DNA of 54,067 bases, filler included, from Sphacelaria rigidula (lineage: Eukaryota): NCBI GenBank assembly GCA_964200075.2. It is 3 parts of 3 records of this genome, joined end to end, with 100 filler letters (N's around TTAATTAATTAA, not from the genome) between each part and the next. Parts side by side here need not be neighbours in the genome. Positions count along the whole stretch, not along the records: positions 36,114 to 54,067 come from CAXNAA020000954.1; 2 more parts are not named here. One strand, 5' to 3'. The position numbers and the translations under genes were made by a program. Positions 683 through 52,020 of the stretch are shown here, in pieces. The notes under the pieces were generated by a model. The model was not told the origin of the DNA. It saw nothing but the letters and a program-made list of their open reading frames with translations, and searched no databases. How positions within the stretch are numbered: the stretch's first letter is position 1; each line of letters starts with the position of its first letter.

Positions 683-975
683 CTAACCAAAAGAAGTCGT
701 GCCCGACGGGCGACAAAATGCCCGACCCGTTAGTACCGGCGTCGATGGTCATACAATACGTCAAATTGGAGAAAACAAACATACACACATAAGGACACTA
801 TGCACCCACAATTATCCTTGTCGGTTGGCTAGGAAACCACACACGCTAAGTAACACACGACGAGCCAAGAGCAAGACTTGGGGGAACATATGTCGACACA
901 CGCTCGCAAACTCCAAATGATCGGATATCTACAACACAAAATCGTCAGTTACCAACCACAGTAGCTTTTTCTCAC

Positions 976-3900
976 CTGCCCCGCTAGACGACCTCCGAAG
1001 ACCCAGAAGGTGCTTGCTGGAGTCCAGAGGTCTCATACGCGCGCTGGACTCCAGGTCTACCTCTTTCACCGAAGTGAACTCGACAGGGACTCGAAAGGCC
1101 ACGCTATCCACACCAATGATCCCCGCACCAACCCCGCCTGCTTCCAGCGGCAGTCCGCCTCTGGCTGCGGACCCTGATCCTGGCATCGCTGTCGTTCCCG
1201 CCGACGACGGTAACGGTGCTCCTATCGACAACCCCGGCGTCGTCACCGTTGCCGTGCCGTTTACGATCACGACCGATCGGAATCCCGCATCCACATCATC
1301 ATCGTGAAACGCGCCGCGCTCGACACACCCGCCTTTGGCAGCACCGTTCGGGCCTGGCCCTGGCCTTAGCCCAGCTCCGGGTCCCCCTCCACTACCTCCT
1401 CCCTCTCCTCCTCCTCCTCTTCCTCCTCCACCGCCGCCGCTGCCTTCGTTGGCGAAAAATGTTGTGATGTCTCCGTCCAGTCCTGATATCTCGGGGGGCA
1501 AAGCGAATGCGATGGGCCGCTGTGAATCTAGCCCCGCCATGACATGCGCGAATGCTCGAGCCACCGGCGGGGGGCGGGGGCGCTTCTTTCCAGCCCGCGC
1601 CACGCCACTTCCAGTTCTCCCGCCCGCGGCCGTCGGTGCTCCGTTTCTGTGCGCTTCGGATAAATCGGACACGAAACCTGCCTCGAAGGCAAACGGTCGG
1701 CTGCTGCCCGGCTTACCAGTCGGCAGCCAACGTAGACGGTGATCCCTCCGTGAGCGACGAACGTCATCATCGGCGAGGCGCCGCTCGTCGTTGGCGTTGG
1801 TTACCGCCGCCGCTGTAGGAGTGGGAGACGGGAGTGGAGGGTCGGCGACTTCGGCTGCTCTTGGTGCATCGCATCTCGGAACGTGAAAATGGGCGCGAAC
1901 TCGGCGCTGGAGCCGCTGGAGCTTGGCCTCAATACACGAGCGGCAAACCCACGGCTGCTGTTCCCCGCCACTGTTGCCTACGCTGGCGGTAGTGCTACTG
2001 CTGGCGGCATGCTCCTGATCGCCTAGACGTGCCGGAATTGCGACCGAAGGAGGTCGATACTTTTTCTGCGTGCCGTCATCACCGCCAGGGATACGACCCT
2101 GCACATCGTCACTGTCGCCCTTCATCGAAGCCAGGGAGGCTAGCCAAGTCTGTTTCAGAACACCCTTCAGCAACTTCACCGCCGGTTTTGCGGCCGAAGG
2201 TGTCGGTCCCGAAGTAGAGGAATTCTGAGCCGGAGGCGACGGACGAGATGAAGCCGGCACCGAACTGCTGCCGCCGGCGGTCGGAGCGGATGGCCGCACA
2301 GGAGGAGGAAACAGCCGAAGTACCACATCCACCAGGGGCCAGCGTGCATCGCTTGCCTGTGCTGCAACATGCGGAAATCGCTGTTTTTGCCGCTGCTCAT
2401 CCCCACTATCCCTAATATGTACACCAGTAACGCCGCGTTCCGAGACACTCGGAAGTCGAACCCACTCGCCATCCCAAGGCATGGCATCTAAACCCTCCGC
2501 TGTCGTTTTACTTTGCTCCAGAACCCCTTCAACGTAGCGTACGTAGTGCGCTCGTAAAACGGGACTCCAGCCCAGGACAAGACCGGCTCGCCAGCTACCA
2601 TCAACACAAACAGCAACCCCATGACCTACCGCGCCCTCCCCGCTGGGTGCCGCCGCCAACTGCCCTGTGGGCCCCACACCAAACTCGGTCAGGCGCTTTC
2701 TGCTGAGCATATCCTCAAACTGCCGACATCCGACTGCATGAACCCCTCCTCGGCAATAATAACATCGTGTGAGCGAGTCCGTGGGTCCAGGGGCGCTGCA
2801 ACTAGAGCACCACTCGACTCTCGTTTCCTCAGCAACACCATCGTCATCGAGCGCACAGTCTTCGTCTTGTTCCGCAACATCGAACACCGGTCCCGGCGGT
2901 GCCGCTCGAACGGCCGCTGGAGCAGCGATGATGCCTGATGTTGGCAACTTTCCATTCACTGCTCCAAAAACGTCTCGCGTGACCGCGCCAGGTGCAGCTG
3001 GCAACTTCGACATCTTCGCGGGCTGCGTTCGGCCTTGCCAGCCGGACCACTGCACCTTCATCCCGACATTATCCGGCGTGCTTGGCAGTAAGGGTGCGAC
3101 TTGTGCGGAAATTCTCGGAGTCGGTTTTGGTTTTCGTGTGTTCGTGCTAAGTGTCGTCATGTACAAGGACGGCAGGCCGTTGCGAGCGTACCACCCAGCC
3201 AAAAGCCCCTTTTCAGCACCGGTCGTACATTCCAGGCACTCGCACCGCCCCTGGCAGCACGGCCCCATCCACGGCCTTGGCCTATTGCTAATACTTTCTC
3301 CCCCATCACCATTTACAGTTTCCCTTTCCCTGCACTCCGTAGCTCCCCCTCCTCCCACCACACCCCCAGTTTTGGCTCTCGTCTCGTCACCTGGCCATCG
3401 AGCCAGACACCGCCACGAGCCCTTACCGCTGGGTGATCCGTTCTCCCGCGACCACTCCACTGCACACGGAGAGCAAAAGTAATAGCCGCAGCCGCTACCT
3501 GCACACTGCAGCAAGCTGCTGAGAGGCAGGACGTGTCGGCAGCGATGACAGAGATACAACTCCCTTGCACAGTGATGTGCGGGGCCGGCGGATAGTAATA
3601 ATGAAGGGCTCGCCGCTCTGTTTGTCACCGACGAAGACGACACCGAGTCTGCCGCGCCGGTGGGTCCGACGCTTCCAGTGCTGCTGCCACTGTCCTGTCG
3701 CATGCTACGAGCTAGTGCGCTATCCCAACCGATGACGGGGGAACAGGACCTACTACCTCCGCCCTCCCCACCAGGTGAATGATCGTACGACATCCGTTTT
3801 TTCAAAGGGTGCCACTTCTTATGTGGAAGATAGCACGCCCCGTCAGACACACTCCTGTTCAGTAGGCGCGCCTTAGCCGACCGGGGGGAGTGATTGCCTC

Positions 3901-6537
3901 TGGCAACGTCGTCCGCCGAGCCGAGTCTCGGGCTTGACGGGCCTGGGCGCTCAAAGGCGCTGCCGAGACTGGGAACCACTGATGGTAGGGGACTAGCGCT
4001 CTCTAGAGGAAAATATGCGTCGAGCTCCAGGCAGTATCGGTGGCTGAGAAAGAACTCGGCCTGTGGCTGGTAAGGGTCGTTTACAACCTTGCCTGAACAC
4101 CGATTAAGGCGTGCACTGAGGCAGTGATGAACACTTGCCAGCCGACGTGCCTCGCACGCTCTCACCCAAGAGATGACCGGCTCAAGGAGCTGGTCACATT
4201 CTACAGGTTGACGGTCATCGAGACGCCCGCATGGCACGATAGCAGGAGTTTTTGCGCTGACTTGAGCACCGCGGGGGATATGCCCGCCGACGGTTCCAGC
4301 GGTCGCTTCCCGATTCCTTGCCCTCGCATCCCTGCCCACACCGCCGCTTTTTTCGCCGACCTCCTGGACAACTCGACAAGCTTCGAATACTTCCGCCTTG
4401 CCGTGAATAAATGGGTCCATTCCAGACCTGGTGTCCTGAGGGTACCACAGCCTCGCAACCTTGAGAAAGACGTCTGCCTCCAACCCGTCCCCCGCCATCT
4501 CATTTCCCCCTGACACGGAGCCCGCTCCCGTTTCAGTTACCGTCTCCCCTGTGCTGAGCAGTCGTCGTTCGACGGCGAGCACCTTTCCGATAGGGGGAAA
4601 CATGCCGTCGCCAGCAGGTGGAATCCCTGATCGCTCCTCGAAACTCCGATCGTCCTTCGCTTTACCTTCCTCTGCACCACCTCCATCGCCCTCCGGATGG
4701 CAACCGCCGCCGCCCGCCGCATACCCGTCTCGGTCGCCGCATTCCCACCTCCATCGCCTCATCATCCAGCGCCAGTTCTCCCGCCGCTGGGTCGGCGGAT
4801 CGTGCTCATCCCCTACTAGGCCACGTACCTCGCCCCCAGGCCCCTCGCATAGCCCCGCCTCGTTCCTCCGGACCGTATCGCGGTTTCGCGGGCGCATCCG
4901 CGCCTGTAACCAGGGCACGTCGCTGTCGCCATCGCTGCACTCTTGCCCTCCGCTGCGATCATCTTGGTGCATTTCTGCTGGTTTCATCAGTCTCACGTCC
5001 TCCACCGCACCGTCTTCCACGAAGCGGACCCTGTATTGACCACTGGTGGCGTTGTGCTGCACAACATCCGCCTCCGCGAAAGTGCCGCCAACACCTCCAC
5101 CGCCTCCCGCACCACCGCTTTTACTACTAGCAAAACTGTTGACGCTACGCCACACTCTTATTCGCTCGCCCGCAAGCGCGTTACCGGACAACCCATCGTG
5201 ACGGGGGGTCGCGAACTCTCCTTCAGACATAAGCGAGCGCTGCACTTCCTCGGATGCCGCGGTGCGTAAGAACACGTACTGACCGGGTCTCGCGGGCCCT
5301 TCCGCCTCACCCACGACTCCTGCGCCTATAGAAGAGGGAGTAATAGAAGCTTCCTTATCCCTGCTTCTCGTGGTGCTCTCCGCACGGTGGGTCTCTTCGC
5401 ACATCTCCGCCTTGGTCAAGGATTTCCCTCGGCATATGGCACACGGCTCCCCCCATACCACCGCACGAGCAGAGCCCCCTTGCCGCACCTGCGGCGGCTG
5501 TGGCCGTGGACGCTTGTATCTTTTCGAGGAGTTTGGAACGCCGCCACAACCACCAACACCACCGACACCACCAGCCGCTCCGACCGGACTCAATGCCTCC
5601 CGCCTGCTTGGAAAGTACCCAGTCTCAAAGTCCTCGTCTCCCTTGGCTGGACGCTCGTGCGCGATATACGTGAGCAAGGTCTCATCTCTCGCAAAGCTGG
5701 CATTGCCGCGGGTGCTACTCCCTCCGCTGCCGCCGCCGCCGCCTCCCCCTGTCTTGGCCAACGATCTGCGTTTCTTTATCGACTCCTTCCTCGGCCTGCT
5801 GCTGCTCAAGCTGCTGACGCTCATCGCATCTCCGTGGTCCAGCTCCGCGTCAGTCGCGGCACCAGTAATGTCAGTGTCAGCGCCATCATCACAAGAGCCC
5901 TTCGCATCCCTGTTGCCCTCTCCACTGCCGCTACCCCCGTCAGGTGCGCCAAATAGACATTTCGACAACGAGGATCCCACCTCCGCTTCTGTTTCACGAT
6001 TGCGCGCCCTCTTCGGTGACACCCCCTCTACTCCTTCGATCGCCGTCTTTGAACGACGAGGAGAGCCGTTGTTTCTTTTCCCACTACTGTGCTTGCTAGC
6101 TGCTTTTTTTCGTTTCTCGCTCGGCGTCCGGCTGCATAGCTTGCCACCCTGTTCAGCGCGCCGACTATCCTCTCTAACCTCGAGCGACGACCGAACGCGT
6201 CCACCGCCGTCACTGCTGATCAAACTAGACTTATCCGCCCCTGGCCCCCGTATGTGATTCCGTGGTATGTCTAGGTGGGAATAGACTTCCGACTTCAGCG
6301 GGCTTCGACGTGAGTCTCCCAGGATTCGGCTCGTATCTAGCCCTGCCTCCCGCACCCCATTAGACAGACCACTTTGCTCTCGCGAGCTACGATGGTTGTT
6401 CTTACGTTGCTGAATAAAGTGCAGAGTTTCAGCGGAAAGCGACGAACAAACGAATGTATCGTAAGGGGATTCCTTCCAGCGGGCGACAAAGGACGATGCC
6501 GCCAATAGCCCGGGGCCAACGGTCGGATTCAACACAC
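976..6537 (-). CDS. Main ~5.56-kb exon of a large multidomain chromatin-reader-like protein (Tudor-like, BAH-like, zf-4CXXC_R1-like, split PHD, second Tudor-like)
   Basis: 1868-aa GC-rich open frame; acceptor TGTAG ending at 6538; donor CAG|GTGAG at 976/975. Motifs: GERIRVWR..YRVRFVEDG (Tudor-like), VARLWYPQDT..AEVF..FFLSHRY (BAH-like), CHRCR..C..C..FCSPC..W..PCCQGRCECLEC (zf-4CXXC_R1-like), CSSC..CYYC..HAVGC..WVCRSC (PHD). Confidence 0.88.
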
Positions 6538-6617
6538 CTACATAGATCGTCGCCTAAATAATAAACATTCATCTCACAGTTTTGCCGGTCGCATTCAGAC
6601 ACCCGGTAACCAGATAC

Positions 6618-11819: not shown

Positions 11820-13465
11820 CGAGCTGGGCCGGCCAAGGCCCTATGGCAACAGCCCACAGGCCACGCGCCGCTCAATTTTCCGAATTTTGAGGGTGAAAAT
11901 TTGACATCACAGAAACAACAGTTAGGCTTACCGCGTGACTCTTCTGACTTTCCACTTATTTTTTTATCCAAAATTCGACATTTTTTTCCTGGGGGGGGGG
12001 GGGGGGGGGGTTTTTTTTTAATCTTTTTGCTGGAGAGGGGAAAAAAAAAAAAAATCGTATAAAGAAAGGAACTGGAGCNNNNNNNNNNGATGAAGTTCGT
12101 TGGGTTTTTGTGTGCTGGGTGGGGAGGGTTGTGGGGGTGGGGGGGGGGGCTTTTTTCAAACCCCTTGCAGTAAGCGAGAAAACAAGAAAAATATGAGCCA
12201 AAGCAGGGACAGGGTAGGGCTGCCTGCGATTTTTCTGGTGCCAAAAATTCCCCCCCGAAATCCGAAAAAAATGGTGGCGCGTGCTCGTTGTAGTGTTTCC
12301 GCGTAGAGAAAGTGCTCCCGTGATCTAACGGTCAGACTGAACGTCAGGGTAAAGAGGAAGTGGGTTCAATTCCCGCCTGATCTTTTTTTCTTCACTTCCG
12401 TAAATATGATTTCCGCCGTCAAAAAAAGCGTGAGGATGTCGAGAGAGATGAGCTGATCCCTTGAGACCGCGGACGCGTCCCGAGGAAAGGAAGGGGTTTA
12501 GAGTGTAACGGAGAAAGAAAAAAGGCCGTGTGCCGGTAGAGAGTGAAAAAAAAAAACGGGCGCAGATAATATACTACGTTAAGTAGTACTGCAGGTGCCC
12601 GAATGTTCGGCAGGGAGACATTAGTGCCGGCGATTCTGCTCGGGTGGGACGATGAAATATCTTCATGTTTGCGCACCATGACGTTACCCGCTCGATCGGC
12701 GGTTTTCACATGCACGAGTCCCACAACCTCATCAGGTGTGTTGAATATTGTGCACCACACGTTGCAAGTCCTGGCTTGTCAGACCTCCTTTCGGAACAAT
12801 ATCATCGCGGGACTTTCTGGGGCCGATCCCGGGGCAACATGAGCTTTGATCCCATGTGCTTACAGACGCCGTTGACCCACACCCTGCTGCTTGCTTGGCA
12901 GCTTGAAGACTTGTCGCCTCCACGGGCTTCCCACGATGCCCTAGTTGCCAACTCAAACGCCACGAACGCAACCTCGCGTCCGCCTCCTCACAAGAGGCGA
13001 ATGGTCGCAAGGTGCAGTTGACAGGGCGTTTCTTTGGTCTTGTGTACCATAGCCTCAACGTCCACGACTTCTTCTTAGTATTATAATATATGGTAGGAAC
13101 CGAGGCCCTCTCCCATCGCTGATATCCCGGCGAGCTTGAGGCCATGGCGGCGAGCATGCGCAATGGGCCAGCGTGTGGTACGCAAACGGCACTCCCGAGC
13201 ACATGAAATCACGCCGCATCTTGAAGCACTAGTTCCGCCGCATCTTTCCACGGTTTCGCCCTGTACTTGACGCAGTACGTTCTCGGCACACGATCTTTTC
13301 TTCTTTTCCAAGGCCGTCGTGTACTCTTGAGCACACCAAGAGTTGTAGGCGCATAAACGTGGCGATTCCTCCATCACAGGGGTATGTTTACTTTGCGATA
13401 ACTCGCCGCGGTTCTTGAGGTATGTTCGGTGGAAGGAATGTCACTTTTGCGACCGGCCCAGCTTG
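11820..13465. mobile_element. TA-flanked non-autonomous DNA transposon, family member 2 (contains a 10-N gap and a nested SINE)
   Basis: TA|CGAGCTGGGCCGG ... CCGGCCCAGCTTG|TA. Confidence 0.75.
12314..12557 (+). mobile_element. tRNA-derived SINE-like element (family B) nested in the MITE
   Basis: GCTCCCGTGATCTAACGG (A-box-like) and GGTTCAATTCC (B-box) at tRNA-like spacing, followed by a body ending in an A-run at ~12546-12557. Confidence 0.5.
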
Positions 13466-17958: not shown

Positions 17959-18058
17959 NNNNNNNNNNNNNNNNNNNNNNNNNNNNNNNNNNNNNNNNNN
18001 NNTTAATTAATTAANNNNNNNNNNNNNNNNNNNNNNNNNNNNNNNNNNNNNNNNNNNN
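17959..18058. other. Assembly gap with artificial TTAATTAATTAA linker
   Basis: N44-TTAATTAATTAA-N44; identical structure at 36014-36113. Confidence 0.95.
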
Positions 18059-25540: not shown

Positions 25541-28500
25541 GATTTGATTGATTGATTGATTGTCGCACTTAAACTGACCCCCCCGGGGTCCAGCCGTGGT
25601 CTCATGATGGACGTACCCAAGAAAAACGAAACTCAAACACGCTCTAAGGAAGAAAAAAAGGAACAGAAGAAAAAAAAAAAATAGAGAGATCGAACAGAAC
25701 GACATATTAGACTAAGTCGTGACAAAAAAAAGTGATGAAAAGTCAACACAAGCAAAGCACAAAAAGAAATGGCCGACCTAAAGCAAGAAAAAGCAAAACA
25801 AGAGGAATGTACAAAGCAAATAAATTAAAATTCAAATAAAATGAAAATAAAAACAATGAAACGATGGAAAAAAAAAAAACAGGGTCTAAGGGATTCATGG
25901 CAGCAGAGTAGATACACACACACCAGTGGGCACCGCGGAGCCACCGACTCAGGACATAATCAACAACCGATATGAGAGGACAGGATTTTCCGACTGGCAG
26001 CCCTCGACGTAGCAGCCTCTCGCTTGTGACATCGGTCTGATTTTCGCTTGTCCGCCCGTCGCCACGTGTCCTCAAACTCTTCCGCCCCCTTTTCGACTCC
26101 AATATGCCATTTGCCCAGGTCCTTCGCCGCAGTGACCCAATCGTATGCATCGTTAACCTCTACAACGTAGACGAACCACTTTCGTCGGGCTCCTTTGTGC
26201 GGGACAGCCCCTAGCGCACGTAGGTTCTCCTTTAGGGTATCCTCCCATTGCTTGGAGGGGCGGCCGACCTCCTTGGGTCCTTGTGTGGAAAGCCGACCGC
26301 TCATGACACGCTTAGGGAGGCGTGTGTCCTTCTGCCGGACAAGGGCTCCCGCGAAGCAGAGTTGACGTTTGCGGATAGTCGTCTCGATACGTTCGCAGTT
26401 GGTCATCTCGAGAACCGCTCTGTACGAAATAATCTTGTAACCATTTCGATCGTTCCTGCGGAATCCAACCACTCGCAGCAAGAGCTTGTGATGTGTAGTG
26501 CGCAGACTGTCGGAGTCCTCAGAACGTAGCGTCCATGTGGCACACCCATACAACAGAGCTTCCACCACCTCCGCTTTAAGCAGTCGAACTTTCAAAGATA
26601 GCTCGGCGTTGGGTCGGTCGTAGAGTTGGGAGCTATATTTTCGGATACGCGCCCACGTCGCGCTGATACGGCGGTTGATTTCGGTGGACATTTTCGCATC
26701 CGTGCTGATAGCTCCACCAAGGTAGATGAACTTCCCCGTCTGCTTATACCGTCGACCGGCAGCTCTGATATCCAGAGTGGCCTCCGTGCAACTGGGTACT
26801 GACCAAAGGCGCATGGACTCTGTCTTGGTCTCGGAGACCATCAGGCCAAATTCCTGGCAGGTCATCACTATCACGGCCGTTATTCGAGCAAGGCCTTCTG
26901 AGGTCTTCGAGGCTATGCCGGCGTCGTCCGCATTAAGCATTGCCCCTACCGCGCGTCGCACCTTTTCCAGTGGCGTCTCTTCTACTGGTTCACCGCCGAC
27001 ACCTTGTGGCGTATCATCTAGAAATACCAAGTCTGAGACGATGGGTGGGTCCGCCGCAAACCGTTGGACGATCACTTCCACCAAGCCTGCTCCGAAAATG
27101 TTGAACAACAGTGGAGACGTCGAACCACGCTGATCGCCACTATCTAGCTGTACTCGAGCTCGGATGCCTTCGTGAAAAATACGGATGATCTTGATCATTC
27201 CCGACGGGACTCCGAACCGAGCAAGCAATATCCACAGGAGCGTGCGGTCTACAAAATCGTGGGCTTTCTGTAGATCGATAAAGCACATGTTTATTGGGAT
27301 GTTGCTCGCCCGTCCCAACTCCTGGAGTCGGCGTACTACGAACATCATGTCTATGGTCGATCTTTGGCGCCTAAATCCACAGTGCTCTTCCGGGAAGACA
27401 TCTGTTTCCTCACAAAAATCACCAAGCCTGTTTGCTACGATTTTGAGGAGAACTTTAGCAGTATGTGCCACATGTGAAATGCCTCTGTAGTTACAACACT
27501 GGGTTCTATTTTGTTTTTTGTGTAGCACTTTGATGGTGACATCTTTCCATTCTTGCGGCACCTCGCCAGATGTCCAAACCGCATAGACGATGTCGTGGAA
27601 GTGGTACAAAATGTCCGACCCCTCCCCGCTGAGTCCAAGCTTCAGATTTCAGCAGGAATACCATCCGGACCCGTTGCTTTGTTGTTCGACATAGCTCTCA
27701 GAGCCTCCACAGTTTCACTTAAGCTTGGTGGGTCTCCTAGTGACAACGCTATTGGTCGTTGAGCAATCTTCTCGATGATGGTGCGGTCGATAGTTGTCGA
27801 TATGGCGTTCAGCAATGTAGAAAAGTAACGTTCCCATCTCCCACTGATTAAATCTCTGTCCTGCAGTAAATTGCCGTCCTCATCTCGAATGTATTGCTCA
27901 CTCTCGATTGGTCGTCCAGACAGTCTCCACCCTCCGTTGAAATGTCTGTACCATCCTCTCATGTCCCCCGCTCGGGTATGCTCTTCTAGTTCTCTAGCAT
28001 ACACATCCATATATTTGTCAACCCCAGCTTGGATCGTTTTTTTTTATTTTTTTGCTTGCTGTTCGCAATGTGCGGCATGCGAGTTTATCTCGGGATGACC
28101 CCAGTCTCACCGTTGATCTCGCCCTTTCTCTCTCCTTCCAAGCGATTTCGAAGTCCGCTTTGATTTCAGCATCCTCGAACCATCCCGGTATACGTGGCTT
28201 TCGGGTCAGACGGGGTGCCACCTTTTCAGCGGCACTCAAGAGTACGTCGGGAAAGTTCGTAGCCAGTGAGCTGACTGTATCACCAGGTATACTCTGTTCG
28301 AGCTCGCTGATGATGAGCTGGGTGAGCTGCTCACGTCTGACGGGGTCAGATACTACTGCTCGTCGGTCGATCGGTGTACGCCCAGTTGGGATTCGTCTAG
28401 GTCTGTTGTGTGCGAAGTGACCAAGGAGCCGTACTGAGGCGCACACAATGTTGTGGTCAGAGTCCGGCGAGTTGGGGGGTTGAAGGTGGACGGCGACATT

Positions 28501-36013: not shown

Positions 36014-36113
36014 NNNNNNNNNNNNNNNNNNNNNNNNNNNNNNNNNNNNNNNNNNNNTTAATTAATTAANNNNNNNNNNNNNNNNNNNNNNNNNNNNNNN
36101 NNNNNNNNNNNNN
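36014..36113. other. Assembly gap with artificial TTAATTAATTAA linker
   Basis: N-run / 12-mer / N-run identical to 17959-18058. Confidence 0.95.
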
Positions 36114-37503: not shown

Positions 37504-40500
37504 TTGGAAGTTCCCAGCCATTTGTCACGGCACGAGAGGAAGCCTCGTCCTCATGCCCCCAAGGAAGCGCGAGCATTGACACGTACCCCTCCCGTCAGCG
37601 GAAAATTCCGACCTCATTCTCCCCCAAAAGCGGCGACTTTGAGCTCGAGGACATTGCCAGGCATCCAAGAGGAATCCAAATCGGACCTTTCAGACGGTAC
37701 CGCTTCCTCCACTGATGACCCCTGTGGCCCTTCACAGCAATCTATCTTCAATGATGACCCTTGTACTTCCAAGCCGGTCATCTACGAGATTGATCAAAAT
37801 CCTGATTCACGCTGCCCTTCACGATCGGATCACGCCTTCGTGCTGTCTACCGATACCTTTGAACCCCCTGCGGATCACCCGCCATCCGTCTTCGCGGTCC
37901 GTCCGACTAATCCTTACCAATTCACGTTATCTGAACATGGCCCTGACCTCGTTGGTGGTAAGGTGTCCGTTGATCCTACCACCTTCACTACCCGCGTAGC
38001 ATTACACTGCGGCCCTTACGCCACCACGCGCGCCAAGTGCGTCTCGTTGTTGGACAGCGGTAGTCCACAGACATTCATCGAAGAATCCATGTGGAATCAT
38101 ATGAAACAGACTAGCGCTGCTTCCGATGTTTGCGACATCACCACCCAACCTCGCGTTTGGGGCGGTTTCGGCGACCTCAAAACACCCTTGACGACACGAA
38201 AATCTGTTCGTCTTAGTGTGCAACTTTACCATAATGATACACGTTTGGCTAGACTCGCAGTCTGGACTTACATCGTCCCTGATAGCACCATGCATCATGC
38301 TCTCCTTCTTGGCAGAGATAGCTACATGCGGTTCGACCAACGTACGTACCGCACCCTCCCACCATTATCGCCTCAGTTGGCGCCTCGTGGAGAACTCCAT
38401 CTAAAACACTGTGGTACCCTCAGTGGTGCCTTAGCCTGCAAAAAGAATTAGCACGCTACCGGAGCGGCATACCACTTTCGGTACAATGGCAGTTATGGTG
38501 TCACCCTTTCCGACGAGCCTCAACTCTTGGACGTTCTGCTTGTTCGCCGCAACGGTATGCTTGCCCTCACCGGCCACTACCTTGCGGAACTGCTGCCTAA
38601 AGTTGGTGCGCCCGCTGGCACTGAGCATTTTGTCTCGGACGGCGAACAACTCCTGCCTCTCACAGGCCATGCTAATTTGGAATCTGGCGATATCTTGGGG
38701 ATCGCCGCGGCTCCTCTTATGCACATTCCTCTAGATACCTGTGTAGCCGACCCTCCGGCGCTGGGTCCCACACCGCCGACTGATGGTTATGTTCACTGCG
38801 TTGATGAGCCATACTTTGATCTATCCCCCTCACCCTCGACTCGGATTTCTGCAGTGGAATCCGACCGACCACCTGCTGAACCTCCTGATGAAGTGCTTCA
38901 ACGCTTATCGGTCGAGTCTCGGGAACACTTCCTGCAAATGTGACACCAACTTCCACCTCATTTGCGTGATATCCATTTCGACCTACATGGTCCGGGCTGG
39001 GAGCCCGCTGTCATTCAAGAGTTACACGATGTTCTCCTGGAATACCAGGACAGGTTTTCCTTATCCAAGACGGATCTCGTGCATTGTAAAACATTGCCAT
39101 TCGAGATGACCCTGCAACCTGGCGTTTCGACCATCTCATCTCGACCATATCGAACAAATCCCCTCCTCACCAAAACAGTCAATGCTATTTTGGATGCATA
39201 CTTTGGAGCTGGTCTGATTCAACACTCGTCTTCGCCATGGGCCTCACCCCTCGTGGTCGTCCCCCAAAAAGATGGCAACATACGCATCACCGTGGTTTAC
39301 AAACGGCTGATTCGCGTCACTGTCGTGGGAAAACTCCCCAGACCTCGCATCGACGAAGTCTTCGACTCTCTCGGCGAAGGAAAAATATTCAGCACCTTCG
39401 ATCTCGCATCTGGATTTTTCCAAAACTCAAAACACCTCGATACAGTTCCCTTGACAGCGTTCTGTACAACTTCAGGGCTTTATGAATGGCTTCGTATGCC
39501 ACAAGGCGCTGCCACAGCACCTGGCTGTTTTCAACGCCTCATGCAACGCGTTACTGACGGTCTCGAGCATGTTATCATATATCTAGACAATGCTATCGCT
39601 TTTGATGCCTCCCCCAAGGCGCATGTTCGCGCACTACGGGAATTCCTCTCCCGCTTGCGTACACACAACTTGAAATTGTCTCCATCCAAAGCTCGACTCG
39701 GAGCAACTGAATTGGATTCTTTGGGACACTCTATCTCTCCTGCTGGATTGCACTCAGACACGAATAAAGTCAAGGCTATGACTGATATGCGCATGCCCAC
39801 CAATATTTCGCAGCTTCGCTCGCTGTTGGGCGGACTTTCTTATTCTCGCAATTTTTTTCCCAATTTGTCCCCGCGGATCCGGCCCATCACCGATTTATTG
39901 AAGAAAAACGTCCCGTTTGTCTTCACTAAAGAAATGGAAGCTACCGTCCGCGAATTGCTCAAAACAGTGACCGAAAAACCGGTTCTTTGTTTTCCGGATT
40001 GGGATGCGGAACAAGACGACTCACGTCTTTTCCAACTACACACCGATGCTAGCACAGGTGGGTTCGGCGCAGTTTTGAATCAGCCCCAACTGGATAGCTC
40101 TGTCCGACCTATTTTTACATCAGCCGCGCAACCCTCCCAAACGAGGTACACTGGGGTCCACTCGAACTCGAAGGCGGAGTCATAACTTGAACTATTAAAC
40201 GGCTTCCACAGTACTTGTTCCACGTGCCTTTCCACATCTATACAGATCACGGAGCTCTTGAACAACTCGCTAACCTTGGAGAACATAACCCCCGCGTACA
40301 ACGGTGGCTGGAGTTCTTGACTGCTTACCAGTACACTGTTAAACACCGTCCGGGCAAAATCAACGGCAATGCTGACCTTCTTTCGCGATTGCCTCTGCCC
40401 CCTACAGCGGTAGATTTCAATCCCGCTTGCCGCTTGACTGAACCTGATGAACCAGGCGTCTACCCCATTCGGCGTTTTTCTACGCCCATCTATGCGCTTG

Positions 40501-43240
40501 ACCTGCAATGCCCCGAAACAGGTCTGCACATGGGGGGTCCCCGCCCTCTGCCCCCTGATGCAGTTTCGGATGGCTTAGCGCCCACAGCTGCTGACTTTGC
40601 CGACTTCTGCACTTCCGGCCCTCGCGCGAACATCTCGGCGCTGCCACCACCAACTTTTCACCTCATCTCCGACAATACGCGTTCTCGGACGGTAGCTCGT
40701 GCAAATTCTTCGCGTGACGTGATACCACCGCCGCCGTCGGCCGCTTCTAGCAATGCGTCGTCGCCGCCGCCTCGTGCCCCCACGAGCTGTACAACACCTA
40801 TCACAACCGGCCGCGCGCCCACTGTTGTACCGATAAAGTCCGCGCCCCTTGCGCGCCCAACGCGCCGATCACGTTCACCAGTTCGCGTTACCCCCACGTA
40901 GAATTCTGGGAATCTCCCCGCACCTGCGCCTCTGATTCGTGATCCGCATGCGTCAGATCCGCTTCCGGACCAAAATGCTAACGTCGGTACCCCTGCTTCC
41001 TCACCTGTGCCACCCCCCCCTGAGCCACCATGTTTGGTCGGCTCTCCGGCTGAAGGAAAACTTCAATAATTTACCGCTAGCTACTCTCACCGCGATTGGG
41101 CTTGCGACCAACAGCAGGGACCGCTTTGTCGCGCGACAATGCGGCTCTTACGGCTTAACTGCCCCATCCCTTTCCCGGCTGAGATTCTGACTCCCGTGGG
41201 CACTCTACCCGCCCCCACCGTTTCTGAAGTGCTCGAGCTTTCACGCAAAGGTACTCTCCTCGCGACTGACGACGACGCCCATTTGCTTGTACGCCGACCC
41301 ACCTCCCATTTGACCACAGCTGCCACAGTAATAACTGCCACTCCGGCACATATGCATCATGACGCCCCTATCCGCATCTATCTCCCCATCATGATGCGCC
41401 CGTGGGTCATGAAGGGCTGTCACTCTGATGTGTCCTGCCACTTGGGTATCACGCGCACGTTAGCACTCCTTAAAACGTTTTTATTGGTGGATCGGCATGG
41501 AAGCATCCACGGGTTTTTGGATCCGACGATGTTTCAAATGTCAGGCTCGCAAAACCTCTCGACAGACTATACGATGGCCGGTGATTTCCATGGAGCTTCC
41601 AAACGCTCCTGGGACTCTTCGTATCATTTGACTACTTCGGCCCTTTACCCACCACTGACCGTGGTAATACCTATATTCTGCTCTTCACCGATCGCTTCAG
41701 CCGTCATGCGGACATTCTCGTCCATGACTACATTAAGTACTATGGCTGCCCGAAATGGCTCCTCTCCGACAATGGTCAACAATTTTGCTCCGAACTCTCG
41801 GATGCTTTGTACAAGCTCCTCGGCATTCGCAAAATTGCCACGAGCGCCTACCACCCTAACGGTAGCGGTGAAACTGGACTTGTGAACCACACTACAGCTC
41901 AAAAGCTCTCCATGGTCGTAAACGACCGCCAGAATGGCTGCGACCTTCATCTTTCGCATGTCATGCTGTCTTACAACAATTCGGTCAACGCGGCTACAGG
42001 CCTTTCGCCCAACGAGCTACATCTTGGACGCTACCCTCGTCTGCCCATCACCGTTTTCGAAAGACATACCTTCGATGGTCACCAAGGTCTGGAACAGGAT
42101 CAGATGTCCTACCACGACCTCGCCAGGGCTCGTCAGCACAAGGCTTTCACTTTGGTGCGCGAACAACACGCTATCAACGCCTCACGCCTTGGAAGATCCA
42201 ATACCGCCCTCTATAATTTGATGCACAAACGCCCTACTTGGAAAATCGGCGATTGGGTCTGGATCTACAACAGTTTAGCCACCATCCGTCAAGGCGCTGA
42301 CCGCACTGCCCAGGCAACAGTCTTGAAGACCACACTGTCTCTTATTTGGACGGGTCCGTTCAAGATTCTCATCGTAGGACCCTCGCCAACGTCTCCAGAT
42401 GGCAAGCCTGTTGGCGACAAGCTCCTCTACCTCGATTCACCTCGTGACCATCAGGGGCATGACGCTAAATATCGCGTCTCTGTGCATCGTTGCAAGCCTT
42501 GCACGAACCCGCATGACACTACTGACATGCCTCAATACCTGAATGCAGGTCTCACTCAGTACGTGCTCAACAGCTACTCAACAAAATGTCCCCCGTACCA
42601 CGTCACCACCGATGACGTGACTGAACAACCTCTCCGCTTGGCAGTGCCTCACATTTCCGACCACCAAATCACTCGAGGCCCTGGCGGCAAAATTGCTGTC
42701 GTGTACAAGACACACTGGCAAGGTCTTCGGCGTGCGTCTTGGGGACGCGAGTCCGACCTTCAACTGCACCGTCGTGCTATCCTTCTTTATTGAACGCAAT
42801 CCCCACAGCAACAGCTCGCTGACAACAAAGGATATCGCAACATGAGACGCGGTGCTGAAGCCCGCGAACTCCACCGCGACAAAGGATTACGGTTTGTAGT
42901 CGATGGTTACGAACTCGTACTCACAAAACAATGGGACGAAAAGATTCGCGCGAAAGAACAACCGCTCTCGAAAGGTCCCTATTTGTGGTATTAAGGCAGC
43001 GATTACCTTTGGTGGCTAGGTCAGATCCACTCCGTCGATGCCCTCGCGGCTGACACATACATCGTGCGTTTCCTCGACGACCCTGGGCCCGTTCAGCATA
43101 AGCTCCGGCCCAATTTATACACGACTAGCCCCTCCGCACCCCGCGGTTCTTGGTGCCTACAACGCCTTAAGTCACACGGCCTACGCCGAGGCTTTCAGCG
43201 CAATATCGATCGTACACACGACATCAATGCACCATCTTGA
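37504..43240 (+). pseudogene. pol: pol (protease, RT, RNase H, integrase, chromodomain-like, Tudor-like), disrupted
   Basis: LLDSGS and LLLGRD (PR); SPWASPLVVV, FDLASGFFQ, RMPQG, IYLDN (YLDD mutated; RT); LHTDAS..GFGAVL, IYTDH (RH); H..H/C..C, LSDNG, SAYHPNGSG, WTGPF (IN); ISDHQ..VYKTHWQG..SW (chromo-like). Confidence 0.9.
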
Positions 43241-49000: not shown

Positions 49001-49691
49001 ATTAGAGTTGGGCCAAGTCGCGCTCACCACCAAAATACGCATAAATTGGTGCACAATGTTCACTTTTGAACATGAGAAAAAAGAAGAACGCGCATTGAAA
49101 AATTGCGCACGAGAAGCAAAAGCCCGATGTCCAGACTGTACTGCACTTGGGGTAACGCCCCGTAATACCGGGCCGGACTGTACCACACTACAGTGCATGA
49201 ATGTTACGGAAGGTACGACAAATTTACCCCATTCCTCGGGTGTTCTATTTTGTTTCGCATATCCTGGACAAGAATACACGGTCCGATTGCACCGAACCAC
49301 GCGACACCCACGCGACACCCCACTCCTTCAGAAGATGACCTCCGATGTACAAGATTATGCAACCTCTCCTCTCACCACATGGGTCAGCTTTCCCCATTAG
49401 AAAAAATAACGGTGTCCCAGTCCCAACACATCGCCTACTCTGCATGGTTACGGGGTTGACAAGAGGATCAATTCGCAGAAGAGATGAGAACTGGTCTTAC
49501 GTCACGCATCTTGTCCACAGTCGGGTCTCCAAAAGTTATATCAGTCGGGCGTGCAGTGCTGGTGTCGCAGCTCGGCCAGTGACTCGTCAGATGCTGCAGT
49601 CTTCATTCCTGCCAGTCGGGTGTACGATGTCGAGGTGCGCATCTGTGCTTTGGGCATGGTGGTCGATACGATACTCGTTTCTTTTCTGCAA

Positions 49692-49716
49692 GGGTGGTGT
49701 TGAGTAAACACCAGGG
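49692..49716 (-). terminator. Histone 3' stem-loop element of H2A
   Basis: CCCTGGTGTTTACTCAACACCACCC on the minus strand ~80 nt after the stop; identical to the H2B copy. Confidence 0.82.
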
Positions 49717-49794
49717 GTTTATTTTGGCCACACCTCGCGGCGGGCACAGGTGGTGTGCCAGAGTCGAGACTTTACACGTTAAATCCGGGCAAGC

Positions 49795-50172
49795 TCAGTC
49801 CTTCTTCGCCACCTTCTTAGGAAGGAGGACAGCGTGAATGTTGGGCAGCACGCCGCCTGAAGCGATCGTCACCTCGCCGAGCAGCTTGTTCAGCTCCTCG
49901 TCGTTGCGCACAGCCAGCTGGATGTGGCGGGGCACGATACGGGCCTTCTTGTTGTCGCGAGCAGCATTACCAGCCAGCTCCAGCACCTCAGCAGTCAGGT
50001 ACTCCAGCACAGCCGCCAGGTACACGGGGGCACCGGCGCCCACACGAGACGCGTACTTGCCCTTCTTGAGGAAACGGCCGACACGGCCAACGGGGAACTG
50101 CAGGCCCGCCTTGGCAGACCTGGTTACCGACTTCTTGCCCTCACCACGTCCGCCCTTTCCCTTCCCGGACAT
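49795..50172 (-). CDS. H2A: Histone H2A, canonical type, intronless (125 aa)
   Basis: [69 protein letters not shown]; no C-terminal SQ motif. Confidence 0.99.
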
Positions 50173-50527
50173 GATTGATAATTCTGATGGATTTCAAAAT
50201 GCTGAAGATGTGTGTTGTGGTGGTAGATGGAAGTGTGGGAAGGAGGTAGGTCACAAGAGCAGCACAACATTGCGATCGGTCTGTCTGCCTCAAATTCAAA
50301 TTTACAAACGTTCAAAGGCACCCCTCTCTCAACGGCTGTAACATCGCTGATTGGCCCACACAAACATGAGGTGCGAACGGGAACATTGAACGAACATGCC
50401 TCCTCCACTCCCAATTTTGAATTTTGAACTCGACCTGGAGCACAGTGCGAACCTCGACAACTCCACACCCCACTACAACCACATCCCACCGTACCCAAGT
50501 TCAGATCACACACATCAAAGAGTAAAG
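50173..50527. promoter_or_regulatory. Bidirectional H2A/H2B promoter (355 bp between ATGs)
   Basis: Divergent ATGs; CCAAT boxes (ATTGG 50350-50354, CCAAT 50411-50415); TTTGAA motifs oriented towards each gene (minus 50295-50300 and 50311-50316; plus 50416-50421 and 50423-50428). Confidence 0.7.
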
Positions 50528-50878
50528 ATGGCCAAAACACCCTCGAAGAAGTCTGCTAAGGCCCCCAAGAAGGCCGGAGACAAGAAGAAGAAGGCCAAGA
50601 AGGTGGAGTCGTACTCGTCGTACATCTACAAGGTGCTTAAGCAGGTGCACCCCGACACGGGTATCTCCAAGCGCGGCATGTCCATCATGAACTCGTTCAT
50701 CAATGACGTGTTCGAGCGCGTGGCGGGCGAGTCCGGCAAGCTGACCCGCTACAACAAGAAGTCGACCCTGTCCTCTCGCGAGGTGCAGACAGCCGTGCGC
50801 CTGATGCTCCCCGGAGAGTTGGCGAAGCACGCCGTGTCCGAGGGCACGAAAGCCGTGACCAAGTTCACTTCATCCTAG
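50528..50878 (+). CDS. H2B: Histone H2B, intronless (116 aa)
   Basis: [78 protein letters not shown]; the homologous start is ATG 50528, not 50396. Confidence 0.99.
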
Positions 50879-50933
50879 ATCATCTGTAGGGGGTCTTGGT
50901 CTGAAACAGTTCCCCGCAGTTCTCCTTGCACAA

Positions 50934-50958
50934 CCCTGGTGTTTACTCAACACCACCC
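50934..50958 (+). terminator. Histone 3' stem-loop element of H2B
   Basis: CCCTGGTGTTTACTCAACACCACCC ~55 nt after the stop; stem GGTGTT/AACACC, loop TACTC. Confidence 0.82.
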
Positions 50959-52020
50959 ACCAGCAAAGTGAAAATGCGCCTCGATACGTATACACACAAG
51001 ACCCGGTCTGCCCGAAGCATGCGAAGATGGACTTGCGGCTGCCATAACCGAAAACACGAGGTCCATAAATGAGGTGATGTTCAGATACAGCTGATAGCCG
51101 GTGAGAGGGCCTACGGGGTTTCACCGAAGATCATAGTCGGCTTGTCGAAAGAGGGGGGGCGTTGAATGTATTTGAACAAAACGTACGGTGACTGCTGTAC
51201 CGCAGGGTGACCTAGTCTCGTGGCAGTAACGGTTAATGTTTCATTGTCCTATGATCGATTGTTGCCAACGACACAAGAGCCTAGTGAGAAGATGGGCACC
51301 GTTGGAAGAACCGGTTGGAACCCAGATACTTGACGGACCTGTACCGGTTCCAGTTCTGATTTCATAAACTAGAGTTTTTTTCTCGGTTAAATCAATTTCG
51401 GCCAAGTTTGACAACAAGAGCATGCCATACGGCACGTCACACGCTACAGCGTGTGGTCGTTGTCTTCACATTAGAATCGTTCCGACATCTTTGCGGTGCA
51501 TTCGTATGGGGCATCTGATGCAGATGACAACTTTCGTGGTCAAAGGCTAGCCACCGATAATAATGTATGGGGAAATCAAACAAAACAAGAAAAAACAAGA
51601 TGGCCCTAGATTCAAACTCACAAAACGCGATGCAAGCACCAGAGCGAGGGGTCCATATCGGGAAATACATGAGCCACCCCCTAATCCCCCCCCTCCCCCA
51701 CCCGCGGTCGAGATTGAGGAAAATGCCAAATCCATTTGGGAACATCATTCTTCCTATTTCTACTAGTATACCGAATTGAATGATCATTTGAATATCTCCA
51801 GGTTCGCCTCAACGTGACCAGCCCAAAACCGAGGAGTTTTGGTGTGTCAGTTGTTCTTGTGGCCATCGGGGAGCAATTTTGCCGGCTAGAAAATCACTTT
51901 TGGGTCGCGGTGACTGGATAATGAATGCCGAGCCCCGCTGGCTTTCGCAAGACCGGTCGTTATTACCGACCGCCATGTTGAGGAGGGCGGTGTACGACGT
52001 ACAGTTCTGTACTGCCACCG

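Follow-up and report, generated by a model that had tools for sequence, protein, structure and literature searches.

In a 54,067-nucleotide (nt) stretch of DNA from the brown alga Sphacelaria rigidula (assembly GCA_964200075.2), hereafter the window, a histone H2A gene and a histone H2B gene are each followed by the same 25-nt hairpin sequence, which is the subject of this analysis. The two genes are divergent, with transcription directed outward from a 355-bp spacer. Both open reading frames (ORFs), of 125 and 116 codons for amino acids, are uninterrupted and therefore need no introns, in agreement with an earlier reading of this DNA that was made without database searches (the sequence-only reading). 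An NCBI protein labelled Sphacelaria rigidula matched the H2B protein at 100% identity along the full length of the latter, and identities of 94–97% were obtained with proteins of three other brown algae by their labels, Laminaria digitata, Discosporangium mesarthrocarpum and Ascophyllum nodosum. The H2A protein begins with SGKGKGGR and is without the SQ[D/E]Y tail. Brown-algal H2A.E has been described as multi-copy, intronless and paired with H2B (Rousselot et al. 2025, PMC12459048), and the protein sequence and gene arrangement of the H2A in the window fit that published description.

The window contains exactly two copies of the 25-mer, CCCTGGTGTTTACTCAACACCACCC, each of them in the sense orientation of its own gene, 78 nt past the H2A stop codon and 55 nt past the H2B stop codon (Table 1). 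No further match was found in the whole window with up to three mismatches allowed, and none of 100 dinucleotide shuffles contained two matches. Comparison of the H2A and H2B 3' regions (~345 nt each) by blastn returned the 25-mer as the single strong match (E = 6.6e-10); the remaining matches were 7–19 nt long, with E values of 0.14 or worse. Likewise, the sole strong internal repeat of positions 49300–51400 was this pair of 25-nt inverted copies, which are 100% complementary. The sequence-only reading had described an exact 25-mer common to two otherwise unrelated 3' regions, and these results bear it out.

Table 1. Positions of the histone genes and of the elements associated with them, numbered along the window.
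Feature	Position	Strand	Basis
Histone H2A gene, intronless, 125 aa	CDS 49795-50172	minus	uninterrupted ORF; Pfam Histone 3.7e-16, Histone_H2A_C 2.1e-19
Histone H2B gene, intronless, 116 aa	CDS 50528-50878	plus	uninterrupted ORF; Pfam Histone 3.5e-18
Divergent promoter and 5' untranslated region, common to both genes, 355 bp	50173-50527	.	sequence; function inferred
H2A 3' hairpin 25-mer: 5' flank CCCU, loop UACUC, 3' flank ACCC	49692-49716; stem GGUGUU/AACACC 49696-49712	minus	RNAfold; sequence
H2B 3' hairpin 25-mer, same sequence as H2A copy	50934-50958; stem and loop 50938-50954	plus	RNAfold; sequence
Extended block of ~37 nt around the H2A hairpin, common to other genomic copies	49690-49726	minus	contig loose ends
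Purine run AGAAAAGAAA, candidate histone downstream element	49678-49687, +9 to +18 after H2A stem	minus	sequence
Purine-rich AAAGUGAAAAUG, candidate downstream element	50965-50976, +11 to +22 after H2B stem	plus	sequence

RNAfold predicted the same structure for the 25-mer in both contexts, namely the 6-bp stem GGUGUU/AACACC, lengthened to 7 bp by an outer U-A pair and closed by the 5-nt loop UACUC. This prediction, together with the ACCC that follows the stem, reproduces the fold proposed earlier. The isolated 19-mer had a predicted folding energy of −6.7 kcal/mol, and no alternative pairing register of the 25-mer gave a 4-nt loop. A scan of the 54 kb for strictly Watson-Crick GG..CC hairpins with a 6-bp stem and a 4–5-nt loop returned four loci, three of which lie in the two histone 3' regions. 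Among the features of the window the hairpin can fairly be called the strongest regulatory signal, as had been claimed.

We compared both copies with the known histone 3' stem-loop, which is represented in Rfam by the family Histone3 (RF00032). The gathering score of this family is 34 bits; the H2A copy scored 15.4 bits (E = 1.2) and the H2B copy 13.3 bits. Eight Rfam matches were listed for 1.9 kb, and among them no family other than Histone3 matched both sites. The alignment was in register with a single inserted loop base (A), such that all six stem pairs, the first loop U and the ACC.AC flank were aligned with the model. With the inserted A set aside, the second loop U falls on model position 3; counted literally, loop position 3 is C and position 1 is U. 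Every stem pair is Watson-Crick; pairs 1 and 2 are G-C, as the family expects of the second pair, and the top pair is U-A. Where Histone3 has a loop of four nucleotides, both copies have UACUC, and the 5' flanks read AACCCU and ACCCCU instead of the A-rich CCAAA. The comparison with Histone3 suggested by the sequence-only reading thus gave a mixed outcome: an in-register alignment with one inserted loop base was obtained, at scores below the gathering score.

The canonical histone stem-loop has a 6-bp stem and a 4-nt loop, in which stem pair 2 (G-C) and loop position 3 (U) serve as the diagnostic contacts of SLBP (10.64898/2026.10.14.759114, Zhao, Bond and Ni Leathlobhair, hereafter the preprint). 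According to the preprint, a U at loop position 1 is also an SLBP contact, and the canonical distance from stop codon to stem-loop is 25–60 nt. The H2B distance of 55 nt falls within this range and the H2A distance of 78 nt exceeds it. In 44,646 Rfam stem-loops the preprint further counts 36 non-canonical ones of several sorts, those with a loop of 3 or 5 nt among them; loops of five bases are thus rare among curated stem-loops, which upholds the earlier description of the 5-nt loop as non-canonical.

Other genomic copies of the element were sought in contigs of four public sequencing runs from three studies (X1, X9, X4 and X6), aligned to 49300–51400 at a likeness of at least 88%. Runs X1 and X9 cover all 30 bins of this interval and behave like DNA; the assignment of X4 and X6 to RNA is a guess, none of the runs being recorded as such. 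Histone-family contigs that aligned numbered 274 in X1 and 254 in X9, and the histone family is therefore large in this genome. Contigs that fitted two places of the interval numbered 23 in X1 and 21 in X9; as the interval has no other strong internal repeat, at least these contigs carry the hairpin, and they were counted without assignment to particular histone genes. Loose contig ends accumulated at 49690 (five contigs in X1, five in X9 and one each in X4 and X6) and at 49726 (five in X1, six in X9 and one each in X4 and X6). As contigs diverge from the window sequence at both of these positions, the block of ~37 nt between them sits in loci with differing flanks. From these data we conclude that the hairpin element is multi-copy and is found in different flanks. 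Summed depths in the two hairpin bins were 5109 and 5018 in X1 and 1831 and 1672 in X9, compared to 150–900 in adjoining non-coding bins; summed contig depth is not copy number, and it is on the contig counts that the multi-copy claim rests. Neither the little or absent cover of X4 and X6 at the promoter (50294–50506) and at 51217–51400, nor the X4 contig ends at 49691, with their ~30-nt overlap into the next contig and their resemblance to branch points of the assembly graph, was used as evidence.

Downstream of each stem lies a purine-rich run, AGAAAAGAAA behind H2A and AAAGUGAAAAUG behind H2B. Three further downstream flanks were read by hand among the consensus rows listed for the loose ends, 77 more rows being on record, and all three had a comparable purine run starting 9–12 nt past the stem. 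A run similar to AAAGUGAAAAUG was present in an X9 loose end behind 50961. In sequence and position these runs resemble the histone downstream element, and they are candidate pairing sites for a U7-like small nuclear RNA (snRNA). The metazoan-style 3' control proposed by the sequence-only reading is accordingly upheld in part: the stem, the second-pair G-C, the ACCC flank, the sense position, the multi-copy occurrence and the purine runs speak for it, the family score falls short, and poly(A) independence and a co-adapted SLBP are inferred.

The spacer between the two genes contains a TTTGAATTT core at 50291–50303 and again at 50412–50428, in gene sense and ~100–130 nt upstream of each ATG. 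Other genomic copies seen in the DNA-like runs X1 and X9 retain a block at ~50336–50434 and skip variable spacers. The TTTGAATTT core is a candidate histone promoter box, judging by its sequence and placement. The H2A 3' untranslated region (UTR) also holds another GG..CC hairpin, GGCACA/CCACC/UGUGCC, at 49743–49759 on the minus strand, 35 nt past the stop codon. It has a 6-bp stem, a 5-nt loop and a predicted energy of −7.6 kcal/mol, is without an ACC flank and, by the contig picture, appears not to be multi-copy.

The best-covered H2B contigs of X4 and X6 (1024 and 1330 nt) differ from the window at 28 of 256 nt over 50623–50878 (~89% identity); the match stops exactly behind the stop codon (50878), where a long, different 3' sequence takes over. 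This divergence points to a second class of H2B gene with a different 3' UTR, or to the H2B of another organism.

A Pfam scan was carried out on 102 ORF translations of the window, from which three frames overlapping the histone genes were excluded. Besides the histone pair, the only domains found among these translations were reverse transcriptase (RT) and RNase H domains of retroelements, and no H3, H4 or H1 gene was found in the window from ORF translations, Pfam matches and H3/H4 signatures. The RT/RNase H ORFs, which are retrotransposon remnants, lie at 25963–27648 (minus) and 38944–40898 (plus), with RVT_1 matches of 1.2e-15 and 6.2e-20 and matches to RT_RNaseH and RT_RNaseH_2. A single open frame of 1874 codons at 932–6553 (minus), within a stretch of 57–61% G+C, had no Pfam match; G, S, A and R are abundant in its product, which also contains runs of glycine and patches rich in Cys. 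A run of N at 12079–12088 is a gap or masked stretch. The pairs of 44-base N runs, with 12 bases between, at 17959–18058 and 36014–36113 are the filler that joins the three parts of the window.

The most likely explanation for these results is that the 25-mer is the brown-algal histone mRNA 3' stem-loop and works in the SLBP/U7 manner, a reading that we consider probable. In this pathway, intronless H2A (of H2A.E type) and H2B genes would be transcribed outward from their common 355-bp promoter, and the 3' UTR of each RNA would form a hairpin with a GG..CC stem of 6 bp, or 7 bp if the outer U-A is counted, and a UACUC loop, followed by ACCC. An SLBP-type protein would bind the hairpin and its flanks, its loop recognition possibly adapted to five bases, and a U7-like small nuclear ribonucleoprotein would pair with the purine-rich run 9–22 nt downstream. 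The 5' end of the U7-like snRNA would be UUUCUUUUCU-like, i.e. complementary to the purine runs. A CPSF73-type nuclease would then cut a few bases past the stem, and the product would be a short, non-polyadenylated message, the translation and S-phase-limited stability of which would depend on the hairpin. Some transcripts would read through. As to the context of the pathway, the preprint reports homologues of LSM10 and LSM11 in Ectocarpus, a brown alga (10.64898/2026.10.14.759114).

Several observations weigh against this explanation. The hairpin was observed directly on two genes only, H2A and H2B. Both copies lie below the Histone3 gathering score and are not family members by score, Histone3 E values were 0.42–7.9 even in short stretches, and a search of the whole window at gathering level gave no Rfam match. 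The hairpin also departs from the animal consensus in three respects: loop length (5 nt), the base at position 4 of the 5' stem strand (a purine; GGUGUU versus GGYYYU) and the 5' flank, which is C-rich where the consensus is A-rich. Loop size, stem position 4 and the 5' flank matter for SLBP binding in animals. As to the proteins, the passages of the preprint on brown algae name LSM10/11, not SLBP or U7 (10.64898/2026.10.14.759114). An AAUAAA at 49718–49723 (minus), inside the ~37-nt block and 5 nt ahead of the 6-bp stem, permits a poly(A)-type reading of the H2A copy. Finally, an X6 contig of 895 nt covers 49300–49909 with 0 differences; starting in the H2A coding region, it crosses the hairpin, extends for more than 390 nt past it and does not end at 49300. 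That X6 is RNA is a guess, and one contig does not prove one transcript and shows neither ends nor strand. A diverged H2B-like X4 contig (40 differences) spans 50813–51184, across the site of the H2B hairpin. If these X4 and X6 contigs are transcripts, some messages read through the hairpin, which speaks against complete cleavage.

The two contigs and the AAUAAA directly ahead of the H2A stem would also be accounted for if the hairpin is a conserved element, perhaps still bound by an SLBP-type protein for stability or translation, and most messages are formed by cleavage and polyadenylation further downstream. Such an intermediate state has been proposed for early fungi and some plants, and stem-loops coexist with poly(A) signals outside animals (10.64898/2026.10.14.759114). 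We nevertheless consider it rather unlikely that the algal messages are formed in this way. Read-through contigs are compatible with cleavage at the hairpin, because selection for poly(A) would leave no other forms than these in a library, because the kind of run is a guess and the contigs show no ends, strand or single transcript, and because animal stem-loop histone genes are also known to give minor polyadenylated products (e.g. PMC3661734). Moreover, no AAUAAA was found near the H2B hairpin, and an ACCC flank with a purine run at the canonical distance is what a cleavage site needs.

The two 25-mers also form a perfect inverted repeat that brackets the 1.27-kb gene pair, and the block is multi-copy, fails Rfam membership and is off the animal consensus in loop size and 5' flank. 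These properties would suit another kind of repeated element, such as the site of a different protein, a hairpin for transcription pausing or termination, or a DNA inverted repeat that ends a duplicating H2A–H2B unit and is kept by gene conversion. We regard an element of this kind as quite improbable. Similarity among the copies extends past the block, the purine runs being alike, so the duplicated unit does not end at the block; a divergent gene pair with histone stem-loops predicts the same inverted arrangement. The hairpin has the canonical ACCC flank when read in sense and AGGGG when read in antisense, and gene conversion alone would not limit identity to 25 nt in unrelated UTRs. That the resemblance arose by chance or through an assembly artefact is scarcely credible: nothing more than the low Rfam score speaks for it, whereas no shuffle reproduced the two matches, the same block was recovered from all four public runs, which stem from three studies, and three of the four such hairpin loci in 54 kb sit in histone 3' regions.

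If the hairpin does act in the SLBP/U7 manner, a more general proposal, which we put forward tentatively as possible, is that brown algae end the messages of clustered H2A.E, H2B and probably other core histone genes at a pentaloop read by an SLBP with shifted loop recognition. In that case the H2A.E/H2B clusters would hold the genuine replication-coupled histone genes, with messages that are not polyadenylated, of a lineage from which replication-coupled H2A is said to be absent. The multi-copy, intronless, clustered H2A class is suspected to stand in for replication-coupled H2A in the account of Rousselot et al., in which brown-algal cell-cycle expression is described as not yet measurable and H2A is classed by protein signature alone (PMC12459048). 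The hairpin would provide brown-algal biology with a sequence mark for replication-coupled histone genes. By the same token, RNA sequencing based on poly(A) would under-report the H2A.E/H2B genes, and expression estimates would need to be revisited.

The proposal also bears on surveys of histone stem-loops, an element that is now regarded, like SLBP, as ancient in eukaryotes. In the preprint (10.64898/2026.10.14.759114), stramenopile stem-loops are described as 'further downstream' and of 'reduced sequence conservation'; its survey outside animals, the broadest that we found, scanned 6-bp stems with 4-nt loops only, and its Discussion states that such a scan may miss other loop lengths. The pentaloop of the window would fail a 4-nt scan, so the stramenopile picture may rest on the wrong hairpins, and the scan may have missed the actual stramenopile element. 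If the pentaloop reading is true, 4-nt-loop surveys mis-scored stramenopiles as having weak, distant stem-loops. A conserved five-base-loop form would be a concrete miss of such a survey and a natural variant with which to study how SLBP reads the loop.

We found no published description of a brown-algal histone stem-loop, although supplementary tables or Lopez and Samuelsson 2008 could still list one. The terms stem-loop, SLBP, polyadenyl and UTR are all absent from the main text of Rousselot 2025 (PMC12459048), and stem-loop does not occur in Bourdareau 2021 or Denoeud 2024. The motif string of the hairpin was absent from the literature searched, in which the preprint was the only match for 5-nt histone loops. 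Histone stem-loops outside animals are already known; the five-base-loop brown-algal form would be a new one. Five metagenome loci that matched a 20-mer of the hairpin were rejected as chance matches: none had a histone-like ORF within 1.5 kb upstream, the match lying at the end of an unrelated coding frame in four (L001–L004) and only 50 nt being available upstream in the fifth (L005). Viral contigs gave no match to the hairpin motif. They do encode nine relatives of H2B at 53–66% identity, five of them on contigs of 1.8–2.5 Mb, which are not algal.

Compared to the metazoan RF00032 system of SLBP and the U7 ribonucleoprotein, the algal arrangement is alike in its placement tens of nt past the stop codon of intronless, multi-copy core histone genes, and in its 6-bp stem, whose first two pairs are G-C and whose top pair is U-A, the first loop U, the ACCC flank and the downstream purine run. 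The algal hairpin differs in the 5-nt loop, the purine at stem position 4, the C-rich 5' flank and the H2A distance of 78 nt. With the brown-algal H2A.E/H2B clusters described so far (PMC12459048) the locus shares an intronless H2A without the SQDY tail, an H2B partner and multi-copy occurrence; the 3' hairpin is an extra feature, undescribed in the main text of that study. Divergent histone gene pairs with stem-loop mRNA ends are also reported from single-celled algae and Chlamydomonas (PMC13525598, citing Fabry et al. 1995), and stem-loops with purine-rich elements follow all four core histones in Chlamydomonas and Volvox (10.64898/2026.10.14.759114). The stem-loops of these green algae and of other protists (Chlamydomonas, Volvox and Dictyostelium) were found as 6-bp stems with 4-nt loops, whereas the hairpin of the window is that of a stramenopile and has a loop of 5 nt.

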